Positions 39,000 to 61,876 of a DNA stretch of 64,000 nucleotides are shown here, piece after piece. The stretch lies in sequence record ON286972; one strand, written 5' to 3'. Numbering within the stretch: the first letter of the stretch is position 1; each line of letters begins with the position of its first letter. This DNA is from Escherichia phage A4. Made by a program: the position numbers and the translations under genes. The notes below the pieces were generated by a model, which worked only from the letters and a program-made list of their open reading frames with translations, searched no databases and was not told the origin of the DNA.

Positions 39000-39030
39000 G
39001 GGTTGACATAAGTCAGCCCTTTTGTATAAT
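39000..39030 (+). terminator. terminator-promoter stem-loop cassette
   Basis: GGGTTGAC-ATAA-GTCAGCCC TTTTG TATAAT. Confidence 0.6.
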
Positions 39031-39038
39031 GGTGACTT

Positions 39039-39617
39039 ATGAACCGTAAAGGTAAGTTTAAAGTATCAAAGAAGAATAAAAGTGGAAGGTTCAATGATAT
39101 ATGCTTAGGTTTTATCAAAGCACACAATAAACTTTCTGCCCTGAGTAGAAAGATAGTATCTAACAAGATTGATATTAGATATATAAGTACTAACAATAGT
39201 ACAGGGAAAGATGCACATCCAACTGAAAATATTATTTCAGTATCCTTCGTATACGATGGTCTGGACATTACGATAGATGATTACAGACGATACGGTACTG
39301 GGTTTATACGTATCTATTGCAGAGATGCATCTGATAAGCCGGAACGTATTCGTATTATCGGTACATTGAGTGCTGGTATATTTGAGTGGGAGATTGTTCA
39401 ACTTAAAACTATCGATGAGTACACCACAAGTTCTAATATTATTGAGTTGAATTGCAATGTGAAAGACCTCCCAAACTTGAGCGAAGAAGAATATTTTCAA
39501 GAAAGCTTGCTAACGCCAAATTTGGATGATATAATTAAACAATATAAGACGATGGTGTACTTCTTCAAATGTATCAAACCTAAGACTTGTTTGATGAATA
39601 TTGTCCGTGATCTATAA
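39039..39617 (+). CDS. hypothetical protein, EE-x-Y-F-Q family (SEEEYFQES)
   Basis: ATG ORF just downstream of cassette. Confidence 0.55.
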   Translation: MNRKGKFKVSKKNKSGRFNDICLGFIKAHNKLSALSRKIVSNKIDIRYISTNNSTGKDAHPTENIISVSFVYDGLDITIDDYRRYGTGFIRIYCRDASDKPERIRIIGTLSAGIFEWEIVQLKTIDEYTTSSNIIELNCNVKDLPNLSEEEYFQESLLTPNLDDIIKQYKTMVYFFKCIKPKTCLMNIVRDL

Positions 39618-39628
39618 CAGGAAAAAAT

Positions 39629-40060
39629 ATGTGGGTTAACGTTAATAGTACTGAACTTAATGAAATTGATATCTTTGCATTTGTTAATCTGGAAACTGAT
39701 ACCTTTGTTCGTGGACGTTTGTTCATGAGTTCTGCCTGTGTTCGCAGTATTGCAGTTATGGATGAACTCGGTCAGGTAATTGAGTGCCTACCATTACCTG
39801 CATGGGCATATAGCAGTACTGAAGAAGATGTAATGCAAAAGATCTTTGAAGGGATCAATAAGCTACCAGGTGCAGATGTGAAGAATAAGATATTCAACAT
39901 TGAGAATAAGAACTACAGTGCAGATGTATTGCGTCCTTTAGTGGATTCAGTACTACAAGCTGCATTAGCTAAACCTAAGTGCATTATTTTAAAGTACATT
40001 CCAGAACTTTCCCTAACTAAAGAGGATATGAAAGGATTTATATTCTCATCGGAGTTGTGA
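39629..40060 (+). CDS. hypothetical protein
   Basis: ATG ORF. Confidence 0.55.
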   Translation: MWVNVNSTELNEIDIFAFVNLETDTFVRGRLFMSSACVRSIAVMDELGQVIECLPLPAWAYSSTEEDVMQKIFEGINKLPGADVKNKIFNIENKNYSADVLRPLVDSVLQAALAKPKCIILKYIPELSLTKEDMKGFIFSSEL

Positions 40061-40284
40061 TGAAAAGGTATAAAATTGAATACCTACTTAAAGTAAGAGA
40101 GAAAAGTATTAGTAGTGAGAAATACACCAGTGAGATATTCGTCAGAGATGAGTATTACATTGGTGAAAATGAAGTTGAAGTACTGTTACAATGCATAGAA
40201 AATGAATTTCAAGATATGACACGTTATATGTCATTTGAGATATCGTGTGCAAAAGTTACATTCTTGAACAATACTTCATATTAA
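40057..40284 (+). CDS. hypothetical protein
   Basis: ATGA overlap. Confidence 0.5.
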   Translation: MMKRYKIEYLLKVREKSISSEKYTSEIFVRDEYYIGENEVEVLLQCIENEFQDMTRYMSFEISCAKVTFLNNTSY

Positions 40285-40288
40285 AAAA

Positions 40289-40313
40289 GGGTTGACTTTT
40301 GTTGACCCTTTTT
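40289..40313 (+). terminator. terminator stem-loop of the cassette family (GGGTTGAC-TTTT-GTTGACCC + T-run)
   Basis: hairpin with wobble pairs followed by TTTTT. Confidence 0.55.
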
Positions 40314-40320
40314 GCTATTC

Positions 40321-40328
40321 TATAAATA
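40321..40328 (+). promoter_or_regulatory. TATAAATA box (exact T4-type late-promoter consensus)
   Basis: TATAAATA about 47 nt upstream of the ATG of gene 40375, no -35 element. Confidence 0.4.
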
Positions 40329-40374
40329 TAGACATAGAGAATATATAACATGAAATCTATGGAGAGAAATCAAA

Positions 40375-41913
40375 ATGCCAGGTAAATTCACTGACAAAAA
40401 CGGCGGCAATATGGCTGGACACTCTGATAAATGGAGTGATGAGAATCGTCGCAAAAATAGTTTCCAAGCGGGGCAAGGTTCCCGTGGCTCTCGCAACCAA
40501 GGAACGGGAGAAGCTGGGAAAGCAAACACAGTTGCATCACAGGGTCTTGATACTTCAAACATGTCCCAGCATGAAAAATTGAAGTACTTCAATAGTCTTG
40601 GTCTTTTAAATCCGCAGCAGAAGCAACAACTTGCTGCACTGGATAAAGCACAAGAACAACCTAAAGCAGCACCAGAAGCACCTGCACAGCCTAAAGCGGC
40701 TAATCCGGTAAAAGAACTAAGTGATAAACTTGGGAAGATCTTTGCTAACAAACCACAACTAATTCAAGGTATCGTAAAAGCACTTCAAGCGGTTCCTAAA
40801 GAACAACTCAAGGATAAAGCACAAGCTGTTCTTGATAGTATGAAAGGGAATACCAGTACTGAACCAACTGAAGTATTCAGTACTATCATGCGTGCACTTG
40901 AAGGTAAGCCACAGGCTGATGATGATATTGAGTTTGATGAACCTGCACAAGAAGTAGCAAATCTTGACTCAATCGTTTCTACATTTGGAAAAATTGGTGC
41001 AGAAGATAAGACTAATGCACAACAAGTTAAGAATGTACAAGCTAAGTTACAAAATCGTCTTGAAGGTAAAGATGAAAAGATTAAACTTGCAGCAGATGCG
41101 TTGAAGAAAGCATTAGAATCATATAAACCTGGTGAGAAATCTCGCTTCATTACTGCAATGAATGCAGTATTCGGTGCAATGAAGAAGTATGAAGCTGAAC
41201 ACGGTGAGAAAGTAACTCCTGATGGATATCTCCTTCGCAAAGATGAAGAAGGTGCTGTTGACCAGAAGGACGCTGAACCAGACTATGGTAATTTACCAGA
41301 TACAGTTGATATGGATGGTTACATTCATCGTCCTGATATGCAAGAATTTGGTTCAGACAAAGAAGGTTTTGAACATGCTATGGCTGTGTACAAAGCATTA
41401 GTCGATAATCCACAATATGCAAATAGTTTTGTAGATGAGTTTGATAGTGCATGGAACAACTACCAAGACAAAGGATATGATTTCCCAGCAGAAGCAGCAT
41501 TCTTTGAACTAGGTAAACTTCTTGCTAAAAATGGTATTAATGTTGGTTCTAATGGTGAAGCAAACACTTCAGAAATGGACGCTGAATTGGCTAAAGATCG
41601 TGAAATGACTGATAAGTCAATTCATGAACTACAAAAGCTAATGATGTGGATTGCTGAAATTGGCAAGAAAGCTGGTGCAGATCCTAAGAGCATTAACAGC
41701 AATATTAGTTGGATTAAACATAAGGTTGATAACAATGCCCGTAAATTACAAAAGGCATGGACCGACCTAGTGAATGGTGCAGACGATGTTGATATCGATT
41801 CACCAGAAGCATACGAGTACGCATTGAACACACTTGATAACTCTTTCAAGGATTACGAAAATGGTAACGTAACTGATTGGGAAAAGGATATCATGCATAA
41901 GTACGGTAAATGA
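40375..41913 (+). CDS. large low-complexity Lys/Glu/Ala-rich protein (candidate late/internal virion protein)
   Basis: 512-aa ORF with GGAGA SD; Gly/Gln-rich N-terminus, PKAAPEAPAQPKAA linker; function inferred only. Confidence 0.6.
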   Translation: MPGKFTDKNGGNMAGHSDKWSDENRRKNSFQAGQGSRGSRNQGTGEAGKANTVASQGLDTSNMSQHEKLKYFNSLGLLNPQQKQQLAALDKAQEQPKAAPEAPAQPKAANPVKELSDKLGKIFANKPQLIQGIVKALQAVPKEQLKDKAQAVLDSMKGNTSTEPTEVFSTIMRALEGKPQADDDIEFDEPAQEVANLDSIVSTFGKIGAEDKTNAQQVKNVQAKLQNRLEGKDEKIKLAADALKKALESYKPGEKSRFITAMNAVFGAMKKYEAEHGEKVTPDGYLLRKDEEGAVDQKDAEPDYGNLPDTVDMDGYIHRPDMQEFGSDKEGFEHAMAVYKALVDNPQYANSFVDEFDSAWNNYQDKGYDFPAEAAFFELGKLLAKNGINVGSNGEANTSEMDAELAKDREMTDKSIHELQKLMMWIAEIGKKAGADPKSINSNISWIKHKVDNNARKLQKAWTDLVNGADDVDIDSPEAYEYALNTLDNSFKDYENGNVTDWEKDIMHKYGK

Positions 41914-41923
41914 TAAAAAAAGA

Positions 41924-41955
41924 GGTTGACTTCGGTCAGCCTTTTTTGCTATAAT
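41924..41955 (+). terminator. terminator-promoter stem-loop cassette
   Basis: GGTTGAC-TTCG-GTCAGCC TTTTTTG CTATAAT. Confidence 0.65.
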
Positions 41956-41983
41956 ACTCTCATAACCTAAAAGGAGAAACTCT

Positions 41984-42259
41984 ATGAACACATACGAACG
42001 TTTAGTTGGCTCAATGCGTTATGAAGAAATTTTAAGTGATATTGAAGAACTGAAAGACTCTAAAAGTTACATCCACTTAGATGAACTTATCGTGAAGTAT
42101 GGGGAGGTTGGTGCAAAAGAATTAATTTGCTTTATGGTTCATGTTCGAAATTTAAATTACTTTGATCTTTCATCGAAGAACGGTGAACCGAATCTTTATT
42201 ATCTATATTATTTGAAACATAAAGATGCATGTAATAAATTATTCTTAGAACTTTTATAA
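41984..42259 (+). CDS. hypothetical protein
   Basis: ATG ORF with AAGGAG SD. Confidence 0.55.
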   Translation: MNTYERLVGSMRYEEILSDIEELKDSKSYIHLDELIVKYGEVGAKELICFMVHVRNLNYFDLSSKNGEPNLYYLYYLKHKDACNKLFLELL

Positions 42260-42874: not shown

Positions 42875-42902
42875 TTGACAAACTCAACTAGTACTGTATA
42901 AT
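42875..42902 (+). promoter_or_regulatory. sigma70-type promoter (TTGACA-N16-TATAAT with CTAGTACTG before -10)
   Basis: same family as 13025 and 31285. Confidence 0.55.
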
Positions 42903-42949: not shown

Positions 42950-43501
42950 ATGATTACTTTTAAGAAAACTGCCAACCACATCCATGAAATTTACATTAAC
43001 GGTCACAAAGCTGGCCTTCTTCGTTTACTCGCCCATCATCCTGATGTTACCGTATCTGATAATGAACCTAAAGATTGGCGTGTATTTTTCTTTGGAAAGT
43101 ACAGTGATTTTCAAGTATCAAACCTGAAGAACATTCGTTCAGTATGCACGTTAACTGAAATTAAAGAAAAGTTAACCAAAGCATTGAAAACTAATCCAGA
43201 TGGTGTTCTTCCACCTGATAACTTTGTAGAGAAAGGATATGCCTTAGCTCATTTCAAAGATGGTACTATTCAATCTATCAGTACTGAATATGAATACCAA
43301 TGGACTGAGTACTTCACTTATGGCTCCCGTAATACTTTGATGGCTTCACGTAGTAAATTGGAAGAAGTACTGACTCGTATGAATGAACGCGAGCGTCAGT
43401 ACTATGAACCAGAAATGTGGAGTTCAACTTACATTGACCGTATTGACTATGTTATGATGACTCCAATCTTTGACACTGCTTACTATGATTCTTTGAAATA
43501 A
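42950..43501 (+). CDS. hypothetical protein
   Basis: ATG ORF with GAGGAA SD. Confidence 0.6.
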   Translation: MITFKKTANHIHEIYINGHKAGLLRLLAHHPDVTVSDNEPKDWRVFFFGKYSDFQVSNLKNIRSVCTLTEIKEKLTKALKTNPDGVLPPDNFVEKGYALAHFKDGTIQSISTEYEYQWTEYFTYGSRNTLMASRSKLEEVLTRMNERERQYYEPEMWSSTYIDRIDYVMMTPIFDTAYYDSLK

Positions 43502-43512
43502 GGATAACTTAT

Positions 43513-43689
43513 ATGAAACTACGTACTCGCAATCGACTGATGGATGCCCTATATCATGAACAGTGTTCATTAAATGAAGTAAAGCGTCAGTTAATGTACA
43601 CATATCAGTTACCCGCTCGTGTTGCAAAACAACGTGCTAACGAATTGCTGAAAGAAGCAATCGAGTACTGGGAATCTGATTCGTACTAA
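43513..43689 (+). CDS. small basic protein (about 58 aa)
   Basis: short ORF with AAGGA SD; not in track; coordinates approximate. Confidence 0.4.
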   Translation: MKLRTRNRLMDALYHEQCSLNEVKRQLMYTYQLPARVAKQRANELLKEAIEYWESDSY

Positions 43690-43728: not shown

Positions 43729-43980
43729 ATGAAAATATTATTAGTTCTAATACTACTAATTGTTTTACCATTTACTTTAGTATCCCCTGAACTTGCATGG
43801 AATGTGTTTGTGTACTTAGTATGTACTATTGTAGTAAATGGTATCTTGTTCTTAGTTCTATTCATAAATGGAATAGGACACGGTGGAGGATGGACCAGTA
43901 CTGCTGATATTGTACATAAAACCACTATGTCTTTATTTGTAGTGTGGAATTTATTCTGGACTTGGTTTGTGTTCTTCTAA
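43729..43980 (+). CDS. small membrane protein
   Basis: ATG ORF with GAGG SD; hydrophobic helices. Confidence 0.5.
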   Translation: MKILLVLILLIVLPFTLVSPELAWNVFVYLVCTIVVNGILFLVLFINGIGHGGGWTSTADIVHKTTMSLFVVWNLFWTWFVFF

Positions 43981-43989
43981 TTAAAAAAT

Positions 43990-44361
43990 ATGAATATAGA
44001 TTTGAAAGGTGCAACACGAACTGTCATACTCATTGGGGAATATGCTATCAAGATTCCAACCTTCAAAAGCTGGAAGTTATTCCTAACTGGAATGATAGCT
44101 AACCTCAATGAACGCTCATGGATGCAGTACTCCAAGCGTAGTGACAGTGGGATATGTCCTACTCTGTGGTCATCGCGAACTGGCTTAATAACAGTACAGA
44201 AACGTTGTAAGCCAGTACAACATAGGGGTTTGTTTTGGGTGGAGTTGAGTGCATTAGCATTGAATTCAGAGTTGAGTACTGACTTCTTCTATTCAGATGC
44301 GAAGCCAGAAAACTTTGGATATTTGAATGGTAAGTTAGTTAAGCTTGATTATGGAGATTAA
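43990..44361 (+). CDS. protein-kinase-like mini protein (catalytic-loop DAKPEN and DYG motifs)
   Basis: AIKIP (beta3 Lys-like), YSDAKPENFG (HRDLKPEN-like), KLVKLDYGD (DFG-like) with kinase-like spacing; ORF ends right after the DYG motif. Confidence 0.45.
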   Translation: MNIDLKGATRTVILIGEYAIKIPTFKSWKLFLTGMIANLNERSWMQYSKRSDSGICPTLWSSRTGLITVQKRCKPVQHRGLFWVELSALALNSELSTDFFYSDAKPENFGYLNGKLVKLDYGD

Positions 44362-44388
44362 TATGTACGCATTGTATAATAAAGAAAA

Positions 44389-44422
44389 GGATTGACTTCA
44401 GTCAGCCCTTTTTTCTATAATC
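44389..44422 (+). terminator. terminator-promoter stem-loop cassette
   Basis: GGATTGAC-TTCA-GTCAGCCC TTTTTT CTATAATCATTTCATC. Confidence 0.6.
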
Positions 44423-44449: not shown

Positions 44450-44887
44450 ATGACACGCATTAACTTAGTACATGTTAAAGAACTTGCTGACCAACATCTG
44501 ATGGCTGAATATCGTGAACTTCCACGTGTGTTTGGTGCTGTACAAAAACATGTTCAAGCACGTAAGCGTGTACGTGATTTCAAAATTAACAGTACTTATC
44601 TGTTAGGTTCAGGTCATGTAACATTCTTCTACGACAAGTTACTATACTTACAGAAGCGTCATATTGATATTGTTAACGAATGTTTGCGTCGTGGTATGAA
44701 GATTCAAAACACTGAAGTAAACGACATTAGCGGCTTCCCTGCTGAGTTTTGTAATGACTACGTACCATCGGAGTCCGAGATTAAAACATCACGCGAGCGT
44801 TTGATTGAGAAGCTTCAGATGAAGCCTAAGTGGTATAAGTTTACTGATGTTGAGCTACCTATATATTATGTTGATATGATACAATGA
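44450..44887 (+). CDS. denV: pyrimidine-dimer DNA glycosylase (T4 endonuclease V homologue)
   Basis: N-terminus [31 protein letters not shown] closely matches T4 endonuclease V as I recall it; SD GAGAGG. Confidence 0.9.
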
Positions 44888-45116: not shown

Positions 45117-45150
45117 GGGGTTGACTTCGGTCAGCCCTTTTTGCTATAAT
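45117..45150 (+). terminator. terminator-promoter stem-loop cassette
   Basis: GGGGTTGAC-TTCG-GTCAGCCC TTTTTG CTATAATCATTTCATC. Confidence 0.65.
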
Positions 45151-58310: not shown

Positions 58311-59480
58311 TTAAACTGGTGAATCTAATACAAATTCTAAACTACTAATGCCACCATATGTGACATTTGTCCCTGTGCTATATACAAAATTACCATCAGT
58401 TATATAAGTTCGGTTATACCCACCTGCCATCTGCGACTTACTATAATCAAACCCATCAGGAACGATTGCTTTGGTATATACTAATGCATTATTAGATGTA
58501 CCAATACCTAACATACCAGCTCCTGAAGATTTATTGTAGCCGCAACAATATATACCATCTGTTGTAGCAATAACTTGGTTATAATATGAAGTAATGTTAG
58601 CAATGCTTACTACATCACCGGGTGGCATTAGTGAAGCAGTTTGAACCTCAAATGCTCTATAATCACTGAGAGAACCATTTATCCCATCTGCTTGTGCACC
58701 AAATATTCTCGAACCGCCATTTGCGATGATGGTTTTACCAGTGGGATCAGTACCAATTGCCATTGCCATTGAAGTACTATTCTCCATATAGTACTTGATA
58801 TTAATTGTATTTCTTAAGCTGGTAGGAGCACCATAATATATAGTATATAACTTACCTCCTGAACTTGTAACTGCATTTACTCTTCCTGTATAAAATAGCC
58901 ATCCTTGGTTTGTAACATAACCGTGCATTAAATTACTTGCAAACAATTTAACAGGTAATTGATCTGCTGCGGTCGGAACAGTACTTTTGACGAATTTTCT
59001 AGCAACATTGTTAGTTGTTGTCCCATCACCCAACTGACCATCACCCCCTGCTCCAGTACTCCATATTGTTTGGTCTGTTAGTAATACACTTGTAGTCTGA
59101 TAACTAACTGCTATATCTAATATTGGTAATGTTAACGTATCGAATGTTGGCATAGCAGAAGTCCATATTGATACTGCTGCCCCTGGCATACCAACAGTTG
59201 TTGAACTTCCACTGTACCATATTTCATCATTGCTTTTCTTAATAACTATCGACGTGGCTCCCATCCAAAAATCTTGAACATCAGAAGTGCTAAAAGTCCA
59301 TGTAGTAACAATATTTTTGTGACCTAAACCCAAAAGACCATTTGTATTCTCACCACGCACATATAAATCACCACTGTTTGTTAAAACAGCAACATTATAG
59401 TTGTTAGCTAGTATTTTTTTAATATTTGGTTTAGCAGGTGCAATATTCCCATACTCTAACATTCTTACAAAAGGTAACAT
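58311..59480 (-). CDS. RCC1-like beta-propeller protein with MLPFVRMLEYGN leader (array member 5)
   Basis: track ORF extends upstream into cassette; trimmed to SD-proximal ATG; motif GDLYVRGENTNGLLGLG. Confidence 0.7.
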   Translation of the reverse strand: MLPFVRMLEYGNIAPAKPNIKKILANNYNVAVLTNSGDLYVRGENTNGLLGLGHKNIVTTWTFSTSDVQDFWMGATSIVIKKSNDEIWYSGSSTTVGMPGAAVSIWTSAMPTFDTLTLPILDIAVSYQTTSVLLTDQTIWSTGAGGDGQLGDGTTTNNVARKFVKSTVPTAADQLPVKLFASNLMHGYVTNQGWLFYTGRVNAVTSSGGKLYTIYYGAPTSLRNTINIKYYMENSTSMAMAIGTDPTGKTIIANGGSRIFGAQADGINGSLSDYRAFEVQTASLMPPGDVVSIANITSYYNQVIATTDGIYCCGYNKSSGAGMLGIGTSNNALVYTKAIVPDGFDYSKSQMAGGYNRTYITDGNFVYSTGTNVTYGGISSLEFVLDSPV

Positions 59481-59550
59481 AATTCCTCCTTTATTCATTA
59501 TATTATATTTAATCCAAATAAGAAAGCCAGTATCAAGTACTGGCATTGTG
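59481..59550 (-). repeat. conserved intergenic terminator/promoter/SD cassette
   Basis: same cassette family. Confidence 0.6.
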
Positions 59551-60660
59551 TTATTTCGGTAAATCAATTTTAGTAAAGACTGCAACATCCTCGCTTGCAC
59601 CGGGAATGGCGTAATACGTTCCAGTACTATATACATCTCCATTTTTGGTTAATATTGAAGTCAAACCATCACTAAAAAGAACATCCCTAATCTCACTAAC
59701 TTCAACGGGTAATTGTAAATTTGTAGCACTATATATAGCACCAGTTTGAGAATTGTTTAATCCCAAACCACGGTTCGCCCCAACACCCTTCTGATATGTA
59801 CTGGTAATTACCATTTGTGTAGCAGTATTTAATGCAGGTGAATTCGTCATAAACAACGGAGAACTATTAGGCAAAGTACTTACAGGAACTGCACGGAATG
59901 TAGTCGTACCTGAACTAAGAAAGTTTGGAGTTTGACCACATACGAAATATGATGTACCATTATAGTAATTAAATGCATTACCACCAATCGCTGCATCGAT
60001 TACACCAGAACTACGTAATCCCCAAGTGTTAATTTGTGTTTGGTCCCCTGTACCATGCTGCCCACTGCTATTCCATCCAGAACTATATAGCTTATTATCT
60101 AATGTAATATACATACTATCATTTGCATTAGTCATTACTTTACGCACGTTAGTAGCACATTGAGTTAATGTGTAAATCGATGATGAGCCAATACCTAAAG
60201 AACCACGATATCCATTATCTCCTGCACCATAGAGTACTGAACTAGTGCTAAGTACAAATATTAAACCATTTGTACATACAATATTAGCAATTTCACTCAC
60301 TGGTATAGCATTGGTAAACCAATTAGTCCTTTCAACTAATATAGTACTGTAAGAAGTAGTTGTAGAAGATGAGAACCAGTACGTTTCACCCGATGTCCAT
60401 ATCGTATTATCATTTTTAATAATAACAAGTGTACGACCACCCACGAAAAAATTAGAAACATCTGAACTTACTAATATCCATGAAGATACCGTGTTGTTAT
60501 TACCATTTCCAGATTCACCACCTTGATTTCTACCTATGTAATATAAATCATGTGAATCAGTCAATAAGAATTGACCCTGTGTAGAAGCACCAACTTTAAT
60601 TATATTTTTAGGACCGGGTACAATATTCCCGTACACTAACATTCTTCCAAAAGGTAACAT
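59551..60660 (-). CDS. RCC1-like beta-propeller protein with MLPFGRMLVYGN leader (array member 4)
   Basis: SD AGGAGG + ATG; motifs HDLYYIGRNQGGESGNG, NKLYSSGWNSSGQHGTG. Confidence 0.7.
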   Translation of the reverse strand: MLPFGRMLVYGNIVPGPKNIIKVGASTQGQFLLTDSHDLYYIGRNQGGESGNGNNNTVSSWILVSSDVSNFFVGGRTLVIIKNDNTIWTSGETYWFSSSTTTSYSTILVERTNWFTNAIPVSEIANIVCTNGLIFVLSTSSVLYGAGDNGYRGSLGIGSSSIYTLTQCATNVRKVMTNANDSMYITLDNKLYSSGWNSSGQHGTGDQTQINTWGLRSSGVIDAAIGGNAFNYYNGTSYFVCGQTPNFLSSGTTTFRAVPVSTLPNSSPLFMTNSPALNTATQMVITSTYQKGVGANRGLGLNNSQTGAIYSATNLQLPVEVSEIRDVLFSDGLTSILTKNGDVYSTGTYYAIPGASEDVAVFTKIDLPK

Positions 60661-60733
60661 AATTCCTCCTTTATTCATTATACTATATTTAATACAAAAA
60701 AGAAAAGCCAGTACTCTGTACTGGCATATTACA
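60661..60733 (-). repeat. conserved intergenic terminator/promoter/SD cassette
   Basis: same cassette family (GCCAGTACAGAGTACTGGC hairpin). Confidence 0.6.
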
Positions 60734-61876
60734 TTATTTCCACGGTAGAAGTGAATCAGGAACTCTGGTTGGTACTCTAACGGCTGGAACATTTCCAAGT
60801 TCAGGTAAACCACTCATATACAAATTGTTATTTTCATCAATTATCATTGAATAGAAATTATCAATTACGAAGCCTGAAATTCGTCTTCCTTCTAATGCAT
60901 CAAGAACCATTTCGGTGAAAGTTAGTATATTTTCGGATGTTTGATTAACACCACATGCACCATAGGTATTTCGACCACAAGTATATAACTTATTATTATT
61001 TTTAACAACACATCCATTCCCTTCGTTGTTGGATAAACCACCCACCAACTCTATTTCACCTTGGAATGATAAATTGGGAATTAATGTACTCATTGGTACT
61101 GCTGATACTGTACCTACACCAGCTTGACCATATGCATTTGGTGAAGCAACCTTCACTGAACCATCATTAAGAAATATATATGAAGTACGGTATGTATTTA
61201 CAGCTTGTATAGCATTGGTGATAGTATTGTCTTTTGTAAAACTTAATATATTTGATGTTTTTGTACTACCAGGAGCAACAGTATTTCCTGCATACCAATA
61301 GGAGCCATCATCAAGTACTAACCCAGTACTGAGCAAAGAACAGCCATAACTTTTAACATTTTCTATAGTGCTGTATCTGAACGATGTGACATTAGCTGTT
61401 GACGCGTTACCAAATACACCACCTTCGCCAGAACCACAGTAGAACCATTTTCCATTTTTTAAAAATACACGCAAATTCTGCCCAACAGCAATACCATCAA
61501 TATCATCAGCACTGACACCAAAATCAGTGAAGTACTGGGTTACATCAATCCAAACCCCATTTGTATTTGTTCCGATTTGTGGCATTACTATACTAGCACC
61601 TGTGAACCAAATAGTTCCATCATTCTTAATGGCAATGGAACCAAGAACACCACCCCAGTAACGTTCAATATTATTATTCACACGGGTCCATACGGTGGAT
61701 GATTGTAATGAACCATTACCACCTTGTCCAAATGAAGATGAACCATACCAGTACAAGTCACCATTAACATGCAAATAAAAACGAGTATTATAATTTGCTT
61801 GTAATCTATTTTTAAATAGAGGTTTTGGTTCCGGTGCAATATTCCCGTACTCTAACATTCTAACAAAAGGTAACAT
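60734..61876 (-). CDS. RCC1-like beta-propeller protein with MLPFVRMLEYGN leader (array member 3; near-duplicate of member 2)
   Basis: 380 aa; N-terminus MLPFVRMLEYGNIAPEPKP and C-terminus ...VPTRVPDSLLPWK shared with 61949..63091. Confidence 0.75.
   Translation of the reverse strand: MLPFVRMLEYGNIAPEPKPLFKNRLQANYNTRFYLHVNGDLYWYGSSSFGQGGNGSLQSSTVWTRVNNNIERYWGGVLGSIAIKNDGTIWFTGASIVMPQIGTNTNGVWIDVTQYFTDFGVSADDIDGIAVGQNLRVFLKNGKWFYCGSGEGGVFGNASTANVTSFRYSTIENVKSYGCSLLSTGLVLDDGSYWYAGNTVAPGSTKTSNILSFTKDNTITNAIQAVNTYRTSYIFLNDGSVKVASPNAYGQAGVGTVSAVPMSTLIPNLSFQGEIELVGGLSNNEGNGCVVKNNNKLYTCGRNTYGACGVNQTSENILTFTEMVLDALEGRRISGFVIDNFYSMIIDENNNLYMSGLPELGNVPAVRVPTRVPDSLLPWK

Follow-up and report, generated by a model that had tools for sequence, protein, structure and literature searches.

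An unannotated phage family of half-size kinase-like proteins, viewed from Escherichia phage A4

In the phage kinases T7 gp0.7 (T7K) and JSS1_004, the catalytic domain ends soon after the equivalent of the DFG motif. T7K, the product of an early gene, phosphorylates the bulk of the host proteome and neutralises several defence systems (PMC13645617, PMC12345140); its kinase domain, residues 1–242 with DPV at 213–215 as the DFG equivalent, is hyperactive and promiscuous (PMC13645617). Here we describe another phage protein that ends close to its DFG equivalent, encoded at 43990–44361 on the plus strand of a 64,000-nucleotide (nt) stretch of Escherichia phage A4 (sequence record ON286972; this whole stretch is the window below). 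The protein, which we call the mini-kinase, has 123 amino acids (aa). A first-pass annotation of the same DNA had pointed to kinase-like motifs in its open reading frame (ORF) and offered a truncated pseudogene among the explanations. We find instead a known fold behind which stands a large, unannotated phage family of roughly 120-aa half-kinases, and the mini-kinase is more interesting than a truncated kinase.

By analogy, T7K would be the best functional counterpart of a phage kinase without a C-lobe. The two proteins are not detectably related: hhalign gave a probability of 0.1% whether the mini-kinase was compared with T7K alone or with a 17-sequence T7K alignment, and T7K falls in PHROG 2828/15752/18305 whereas the mini-kinase falls in PHROG 4301. 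T7K also differs in having DPV rather than the DYG of the mini-kinase, an N-terminal extension of about 60 residues and a C-terminal DNA-binding shut-off domain.

In architecture, the mini-kinase comes nearest, among known proteins, to OspG and NleH, secreted type III effectors of Shigella and of enterohaemorrhagic and enteropathogenic E. coli (EHEC/EPEC) that work in eukaryotic cells, whereas the mini-kinase is a phage protein in bacteria. The crystallised chain of OspG has 169 residues, with sequence continuing past DFG, compared with 123 aa and an end at DFG+1 in the mini-kinase; three profile searches of the PDB gave no match to OspG or NleH at E ≤ 10. Host E2~ubiquitin is reported to activate OspG (PMC11078946), and this activator has no bacterial counterpart.

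By sequence motif, Hanks-type Ser/Thr kinases such as TTK appear closest. Unlike the mini-kinase, these enzymes (TTK/MPS1, PknB) have an activation segment, an APE motif, helices F–I and the His and Arg of HRD, and their glycine-rich loop reads GxGxxG where the mini-kinase has G-x-[TS]-R. RIO and Bud32/PRPK kinases, at 220–290 aa, keep αF and further C-lobe helices that the mini-kinase lacks, and their catalytic loops are without a lysine of the PKA K168 type; no sequence-level match between them and the mini-kinase was found. The archaeal tRNA 2′-kinase ArkI/Ark1 is about 50 residues longer and acts on RNA, whereas the mini-kinase has the catalytic-loop Lys of protein kinases; here too, we detected no sequence similarity to the mini-kinase.

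A kinase-like core that ends one residue past DFG

The ORF starts with ATG, runs for 123 codons and ends with a TAA stop at 44359–44361, in both the ORF listing and the raw sequence. Its translation, MNIDLKGATRTVILIGEYAIKIPTFKSWKLFLTGMIANLNERSWMQYSKRSDSGICPTLWSSRTGLITVQKRCKPVQHRGLFWVELSALALNSELSTDFFYSDAKPENFGYLNGKLVKLDYGD, is a protein of 14.0 kDa with a pI of 9.3 that belongs to PHROG 4301, is orthologous to gp215 of 121Q and gp134 of Sharanji, and comprises Hanks subdomains I–VII only. The AIKIP, YSDAKPENFG and DYGD stretches that the first-pass annotation had read in this ORF are all present, and the ORF itself lies where it was placed (all features that follow are on the plus strand). The equivalent of the glycine-rich loop is G7-A-T9-R10 (44008–44019). 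The VAIK-like β3 motif A19-I-K21 (44044–44052), followed by P23, contains the ATP-anchoring lysine K21 (44050–44052), and the αC glutamate is E41 (44110–44112). The catalytic loop S102-D103-A-K105-P-E-N108 (44293–44313), counterpart of HRDLKPEN, is succeeded by F-G and is of the non-RD type, having neither the His nor the Arg of HRD. The DFG equivalent, with its Mg-binding Asp, is D120-Y-G122 (44347–44355). The stop codon directly follows D123, and the activation segment (DFG to APE) and helices G, H and I are absent, in keeping with the earlier reading of a protein that ends right after DYGD without activation segment or C-lobe.

In PKA, K72 and E91 lie 19 residues apart, and D166 and D184 lie 18 apart. 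The corresponding distances in the mini-kinase sequence, 20 from K21 to E41 and 17 from D103 to D120, match these, which bears out the kinase-like spacing proposed at first pass. When the 187 ORFs of at least 60 aa in the six frames of the window were searched with a regular expression for the catalytic loop plus DFG, the mini-kinase was the sole match. Because this match is unique in the window, and because hundreds of homologues share the residues concerned with little or no variation, the combination of motifs is not a chance one.

Residue conservation was assessed in an alignment of 256 family members. The β3 Lys (K21, 254/254), the αC Glu (E41, 255/255) and the DFG Asp (D120, 251/251) do not vary, nor do G7 and R10 of the glycine-loop equivalent (251/251 each), between which position 9 is T in 225 and S in 18. 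The catalytic Asp, D103, is D in 188 members and E in 63, and is acidic in 251 of 253; K105, equivalent to PKA K168, is kept in 222 of 256 (87%); and the Mg-binding Asn, N108, is N in 194 and S in 56. Past the catalytic loop, G110 recurs in 247 members, and the last two DYG positions are Y in 211 and G or A in 214 and 24, respectively. Two residues in αC are specific to the family, G34 (253/255) and N38 (252/255). Judged from this alignment, all the residues that ATP and Mg binding and phosphate transfer require of a kinase are conserved, with nothing kept beyond DFG: the β3 Lys, the αC Glu, the catalytic Asp, the Lys two residues on, the Asn and the DFG Asp.

The mini-kinase has the K21–E41 pair typical of the protein kinase-like (PKL) superfamily, together with its catalytic Asp, Mg-binding Asn and DFG Asp. 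Additionally, K105 provides the Lys or Arg that all eukaryotic protein kinases (ePKs) have at the position of PKA K168 and that small-molecule eukaryotic-like kinases (ELKs) generally lack (Oruganty et al. 2016, PMC4702295). The missing HRD Arg is expected in this family, because there is no activation loop to phosphorylate. About a quarter of the family (for example, P0227, P0211 and P0249) has E-x-K-x-D-S-F-G in place of D-x-K-P-E-N, with Glu for the catalytic Asp, Ser for the Mg-binding Asn and K21, E41 and D120 unchanged; the mini-kinase of the window falls in the canonical D-x-K-P-E-N group.

An AlphaFold2 (AF2) model built on a 118-sequence alignment has a mean predicted local distance difference test score (pLDDT) of 92.6 and a predicted template-modelling score (pTM) of 0.82. 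Its N-lobe consists of strands 2–4 and 10–15 around the glycine-loop equivalent, strand 18–23 with the β3 motif, a long helix 28–43 containing G34, N38 and E41, a short helix 45–48, and strands 58–61 and 68–71; helix 79–92, a short helix 97–101 and strands 109–112 and 115–118 follow. The order of elements is that of kinase β1–β3, αC, β4–β5, αE, catalytic loop and β7–β8, or approximately PKA residues 43–186. The model thus contains the elements of the bilobal PKL fold (a five-stranded N-lobe with αC, αE, and catalytic and Mg-binding loops), and the protein is predicted to be a PKL fold reduced to a five-stranded N-lobe, αC, hinge, αE, catalytic loop and Mg-binding DYG. Subdomain IX, the F-helix, is missing, as the protein ends at DFG+1. 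This helix is counted in the core common to all ePKs and ELKs and anchors the hydrophobic spines (PMC4702295), and its absence is the family's most unusual feature.

Structure comparison placed the model among kinases. With Foldseek against the PDB, one of the searches by which the first-pass annotation had proposed to check its idea, the top 50 matches were all kinases (probability 0.96–1.00, query TM-score 0.46–0.65), including Lpg2603, TTK/MPS1, WbdD, RIOK2 and PRPK. Against BFVD, the best matches were small phage proteins of 117–273 aa, among them proteins of RP12, OBP, Aeromonas phages PS1 and D6, Lacusarx, PaMx11, CBB and RaK2, followed by giant-virus kinases. The minimal kinase-like fold that the annotation had suggested is borne out by the AF2 and Foldseek results; the RIO likeness that went with it has no counterpart at sequence level. 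A broad 139-sequence family profile ranked 22 distinct TTK kinase sequences first in the PDB (E 0.013–0.05), and the HMMER alignment to TTK set D103, K105, N108 and D120 on its HSDLKPAN and DFG motifs, a link to known kinases that is weak but coherent. We consider it very likely that the mini-kinase is truly a PKL protein in minimal form and that its nucleotide site is intact.

Short length as the native architecture of a phage family

The mini-kinase matches PHROG 4301, a family of ‘unknown function’, at E 3e-43. Searching 5.8 billion proteins with a word-indexed profile method gave 148 clusters at 90% identity; among the 120 of these that were listed, almost all proteins are 110–135 aa long and none has a Pfam domain. 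An exhaustive HMMER search of 1.84 billion representatives clustered at 50% identity found 1,209 family representatives at E ≤ 1e-3 and 644 at E ≤ 1e-10. These more than 1,200 sequence clusters come from T4-like, rV5-like, N4-like, FelixO1-like and lambdoid phages, Pseudomonas siphoviruses and several jumbo-phage groups. In 255 retrieved representatives of the 1,209, the median length is 123 aa; the last profile position is the end of the protein in 146 of the 255 examined, with one residue more in a further 56, and the C terminus lies within 3 residues of D-Y-G in 219 of 248 (~88%). In this very large, phage-borne family, the short architecture is the native one. Distant relatives carry just 18–30 extra residues past D-Y-A, as in the 142-aa proteins of Pseudomonas phages PaMx25 and PaMx11, and also include 244-aa forms with N-terminal extensions.

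These lengths bear on the possibility, raised at first pass, that the gene is a truncated kinase pseudogene or the product of a sequencing frameshift, a decaying remnant of a full-length kinase. The end of the ORF one residue past DYG would fit such a remnant, as would the existence of a few longer homologues (Kc263, 267 aa; OBP, 273 aa; P0222, 257 aa). However, the tails of the longer homologues match no Pfam family, are mutually dissimilar and partly low-complexity-looking, and do not resemble a C-lobe by eye, and members that stop where the mini-kinase stops form the bulk of the family. Further, the region of the window is 90–94% DNA-identical to Asteriusvirus jumbo coliphages (121Q, PBECO4, phAPEC6, G17 and Sharanji, with genomes of ~350 kb), and the search for a longer orthologue in related phages found the mini-kinase at full length in 31 related jumbo-phage genomes. 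Between the window and 121Q, the gene has 23 synonymous and 8 non-synonymous codon differences, and its nucleotide differences are distributed over the three codon positions as 10/2/23. Because of this synonymous excess and codon-position pattern, we conclude that the mini-kinase is a real protein-coding gene under purifying selection. Finally, the 89-nt spacer downstream of the stop carries a promoter-like sequence and a ten-codon remnant of an unrelated gene rather than a lost C-lobe. On the strength of the family length distribution, the conservation of orthologues and the substitution pattern, we reject the pseudogene and frameshift readings, which are now hardly credible.

The family has largely escaped annotation. 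Nearly all of the checked records label orthologues of the mini-kinase ‘hypothetical protein’, and a few GenBank/UniProt records name single members kinase by automatic annotation (pEa_SNUABM_5, Kc263, AH04 and RP12). No model in Pfam, NCBIfam or PADLOC covers the family. Pfam kinase models gave no match to the mini-kinase at E ≤ 10; 118 members searched against Pfam gave only sub-threshold matches, to ABC1 (8 members) and PIP49_C (5 members); and eight longer or more distant relatives gave no kinase match in Pfam. A pattern scan of representative bacterial genomes found no match with the pattern used. Two records that might mislead were set aside: the label ‘virion structural protein’ under the SXP01 match belongs to an annotated coding sequence that merely touches the edge of the match, and P0141 (1,073 aa, E 4e-25, 16 matching stretches) is not a multi-kinase but a perfect tandem repeat of a unit of ~67 aa, which looks like an assembly or translation artefact. 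Defining the family would improve the annotation of hundreds of phage genomes.

Candidate function and its alternatives

We favour, as rather probable, a functional and selected stand-alone mini-kinase, its PKL fold cut to Hanks subdomains I–VII, that is probably directed at the host. Its most likely function, as read from the motifs, would be that of a stand-alone minimal Ser/Thr-type phosphotransferase acting on host proteins; that it is an active protein kinase aimed at the host is, in our view, marginally probable. The mini-kinase would bind ATP and Mg and move the γ-phosphate to hydroxyls, most likely of protein Ser/Thr, because K105 is a mark of protein kinases and the loop resembles DLKPEN. 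Having neither an RD arginine nor an activation segment, it would be expected to be constitutively active. Because it has no P+1 loop and no helices F and G, it would be poorly selective; alternatively, a host protein, the target or self-association might cover the surface where αF normally packs or lend a docking surface. The target would probably be a host component, in host takeover or counter-defence like that of T7 gp0.7. Three observations point to the host: the sigma-70-like promoter context, the mobility of the single gene across unrelated phages and the lack of a conserved phage partner.

The mobility is seen in the positions of the gene, which are typically classic variable or moron sites. 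The T4-like phage JS10 has it between 24.3 and rnlB; in a Tequatrovirus it is flanked by the gene 1 (dNMP kinase) region and the tRNA cluster, and in a Vequintavirinae phage it is found downstream of the gene for DNA polymerase. An N4-like phage carries it among early genes, and in a FelixO1-like phage it stands by itself, on the opposite strand, with the genes for DNA ligase and DNA polymerase to either side. Salmonella lambdoid prophages have it between the Rz lysis gene and terminase Nu1, Acinetobacter prophages within the head-tail module, and several jumbo phages also carry it. Mini-kinases at least 70% identical are common to a Tequatrovirus, a Vequintavirinae phage and an N4-like Gamaleyavirus (ESh17, A7_1 and phi G17), and others to an Erwinia jumbo phage and Salmonella lambdoid prophages. 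Such identity between phages that are unrelated but infect the same hosts indicates that the gene has recently moved horizontally on its own, as far as sequence comparison goes. All-against-all clustering of neighbouring ORFs at 72 loci found no conserved partner gene.

Only denV recurs as a neighbour, and it does so in 2 of 26 kinase lineages. In the window, denV, encoding a pyrimidine-dimer DNA glycosylase, is at 44450–44887 on the plus strand (Pfam Pyr_excise E 8.8e-15; PHROG 1183 E 4e-59), downstream of the mini-kinase as the first-pass annotation had placed it. In PaMx25-like Pseudomonas phages (Nipunavirus), the 142-aa relative (~30% identity) overlaps denV by 4 nt (PaMx25 gp65–gp66). 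This adjacency could reflect two-gene co-transfer, a functional link or coincidence, and we regard a functional link between the mini-kinase and its downstream neighbour as suggestive at most.

Neighbours of this kind are among the grounds for thinking of a nucleic-acid or small-molecule kinase instead, one with the same minimal PKL core whose substrate would be RNA, DNA, a nucleotide or a metabolite, like ArkI or the aminoglycoside kinases. Besides the overlap with denV in PaMx25 and the position just upstream of it in Asteriusviruses, the gene abuts the RNA ligase gene rnlB in JS10 and, in SWJM-02 and A7_1, is close to genes for DNA ligase or polymerase. The proteins of the family are basic (median pI 9.2, net charge +4.6), the model has Ark1- and APH-like structural scores, and the replacement of N108 by Ser has a precedent in methylthioribose kinase, which has Ser in place of the Mg-binding Asn (PMC4702295). 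Set against these points, 87% of members retain K105, a residue generally missing from small-molecule ELKs (PMC4702295), the loop D-[LA]-K-P-E-N is nearly the Ser/Thr ePK consensus, and the substrate-binding inserts of ELKs are absent. Adjacency to denV is confined to the two lineages, and nucleic-acid enzymes abound in phage early and middle regions anyway. A non-protein substrate is, in our estimation, unlikely.

The protein might also bind nucleotide without phosphotransfer, as a pseudokinase, ATPase or scaffold that binds or sequesters a host protein, for instance by decoying a defence sensor or by serving as partner to a host kinase. The mini-kinase lacks the elements that dock substrates (activation segment, P+1 loop and helices F and G), and the exposed face of its truncated C-lobe would be plausible for protein binding. 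The weak sub-threshold Pfam matches of 8 of the 118 members are to ABC1/UbiB-type atypical kinases, and atypical kinase-like proteins such as COQ8 are reported to work as ATPases (PMC13418538). Yet a pure binder would have no need of the D-x-K-x-x-N loop. Pseudokinases characteristically lose the β3 Lys, the catalytic Asp and/or the DFG Asp, whereas ~250 divergent members of this family have these three residues, as well as the Asn and the catalytic-loop Lys, either unchanged or conservatively substituted. We therefore judge a non-catalytic role rather improbable.

Several points count against the reading that we favour, an active protein kinase directed at the host. The sequence links to known kinases are marginal, with a best PDB E of 0.013 and Pfam kinase models below threshold, and the AF2 fold is a prediction. 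Stability and catalysis would have to do without αF, part of the core of ePKs and ELKs, and in the E-x-K-x-D-S subgroup the catalytic chemistry may be different. A basic family that in several lineages sits beside nucleic-acid enzymes (denV, rnlB) fits a non-protein substrate equally well. In the literature, we found no description of the family, although subscription journals were thinly covered and one could be missed. Finally, 18 promoter-like sites were found compared with 16.3 in shuffled sequence, this being an AT-rich region, which amounts to no enrichment; because promoter matches are no commoner than in the shuffles, ‘early gene’ is an inferred label for the mini-kinase.

The most far-reaching proposal, which we offer tentatively and hold to be doubtful, is that the family represents the minimal catalytically competent kinase unit: a self-sufficient 14-kDa Ser/Thr kinase that works without F-helix, activation segment or substrate-binding lobe, and a broad, promiscuous modifier of host proteins, spread through many phage families by horizontal transfer. 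It may be, for example, a general counter-defence weapon like T7K that evolved independently, its C-lobe completed by dimerising or by docking on the target. A variant, in which a nucleic-acid kinase is coupled to DenV or Rnl2 repair enzymes, is more speculative. If active, these proteins would be the smallest kinase-like enzymes known, setting a new lower size limit for the protein-kinase fold of ~120 residues, compared with ~170 or more for OspG, HopBF1 and Ark1 and ~250 for classical kinases. Activity would also show that a kinase can do without the F-helix, which is held to belong to the universal kinase core and to anchor both hydrophobic spines, and would bear on how the kinase core folds, binds ATP and selects substrates. 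It would further establish a second, independent and far more widespread family of phage kinases beside T7 gp0.7.

Genomic neighbourhood in the window

The mini-kinase is the last of four small genes (42950–43501, 43513–43689, 43729–43980 and 43990–44361), headed by a sigma-70-like promoter, TTGACA-16-TATAAT, at 42875–42902 on the plus strand (12/12 consensus positions), from which host RNA polymerase would drive early transcription. A second such sequence, TTGACT-18-TATAAT, at 44392–44421 (plus strand, 11/12), lies between this cassette and denV, and a further one (11/12) occurs at 45121–45150. The succession of short cassettes preceded by promoter-like sites (42875, 44392 and 45121) suggests a modular early-gene array.

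The gene that adjoins the mini-kinase upstream, at 43729–43980, encodes a very hydrophobic 83-aa protein (MKILLVLILLIVLPF...), kept in 121Q as gp214, that is probably membrane-embedded as judged from its sequence. It ends 9 nt 5′ of the mini-kinase ATG, before which there is no obvious Shine–Dalgarno sequence; for this reason, translation of the mini-kinase may be coupled to that of the upstream gene.

Downstream, the 89 nt between the mini-kinase stop and denV contain, at 44363–44395 on the plus strand, the ten-codon remnant MYALYNKEKD of 121Q gp216 (89 aa), recognised by alignment with 121Q and followed by a stop. The gene itself (gp216 in 121Q, gp133 in Sharanji) is deleted in the window, with the junction between two copies of AATAAAGAAAAG, one of which lies just past the start of the gp216/gp133 gene and the other just past its stop. 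A split kinase whose C-lobe comes from gp216, which in 121Q starts 2 nt past the mini-kinase stop, was rejected because that gene is deleted here; further, gp216 is unrelated to the genes downstream of mini-kinases in other phages. The 89-aa product gave no match in NCBIfam.

A T7K homologue in Asteriusviruses has been noted (PMC11895373, PMC13645617). In Sharanji, the true homologue is gp144 (224 aa, E 2e-20 against the T7K profile), a separate gene ~3 kb upstream of the mini-kinase that does not match the mini-kinase profile. We therefore rejected an equation of the mini-kinase with the ‘T7K homologue of jumbophage G17’ (PMC13645617). The window contains no T7K-like sequence; its ~39000–42000 region has ORFs of 192, 143, 75 and 512 aa instead, and this phage differs from Sharanji in that variable region. 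The lone weak tblastn match for the T7K homologue, at 59361–59528, falls in a repeat-rich 443-aa protein in which no kinase motifs are visible by eye. Two adjacent paralogous ORFs of 443 and 420 aa, rich in G, S and T, occupy 58311–60813 on the minus strand. They share a near-identical N-terminal stretch (...IKYxIMNKGGIMLPFxRML.YGNI...) and, from their sequences, may be repeat or β-propeller-type proteins.

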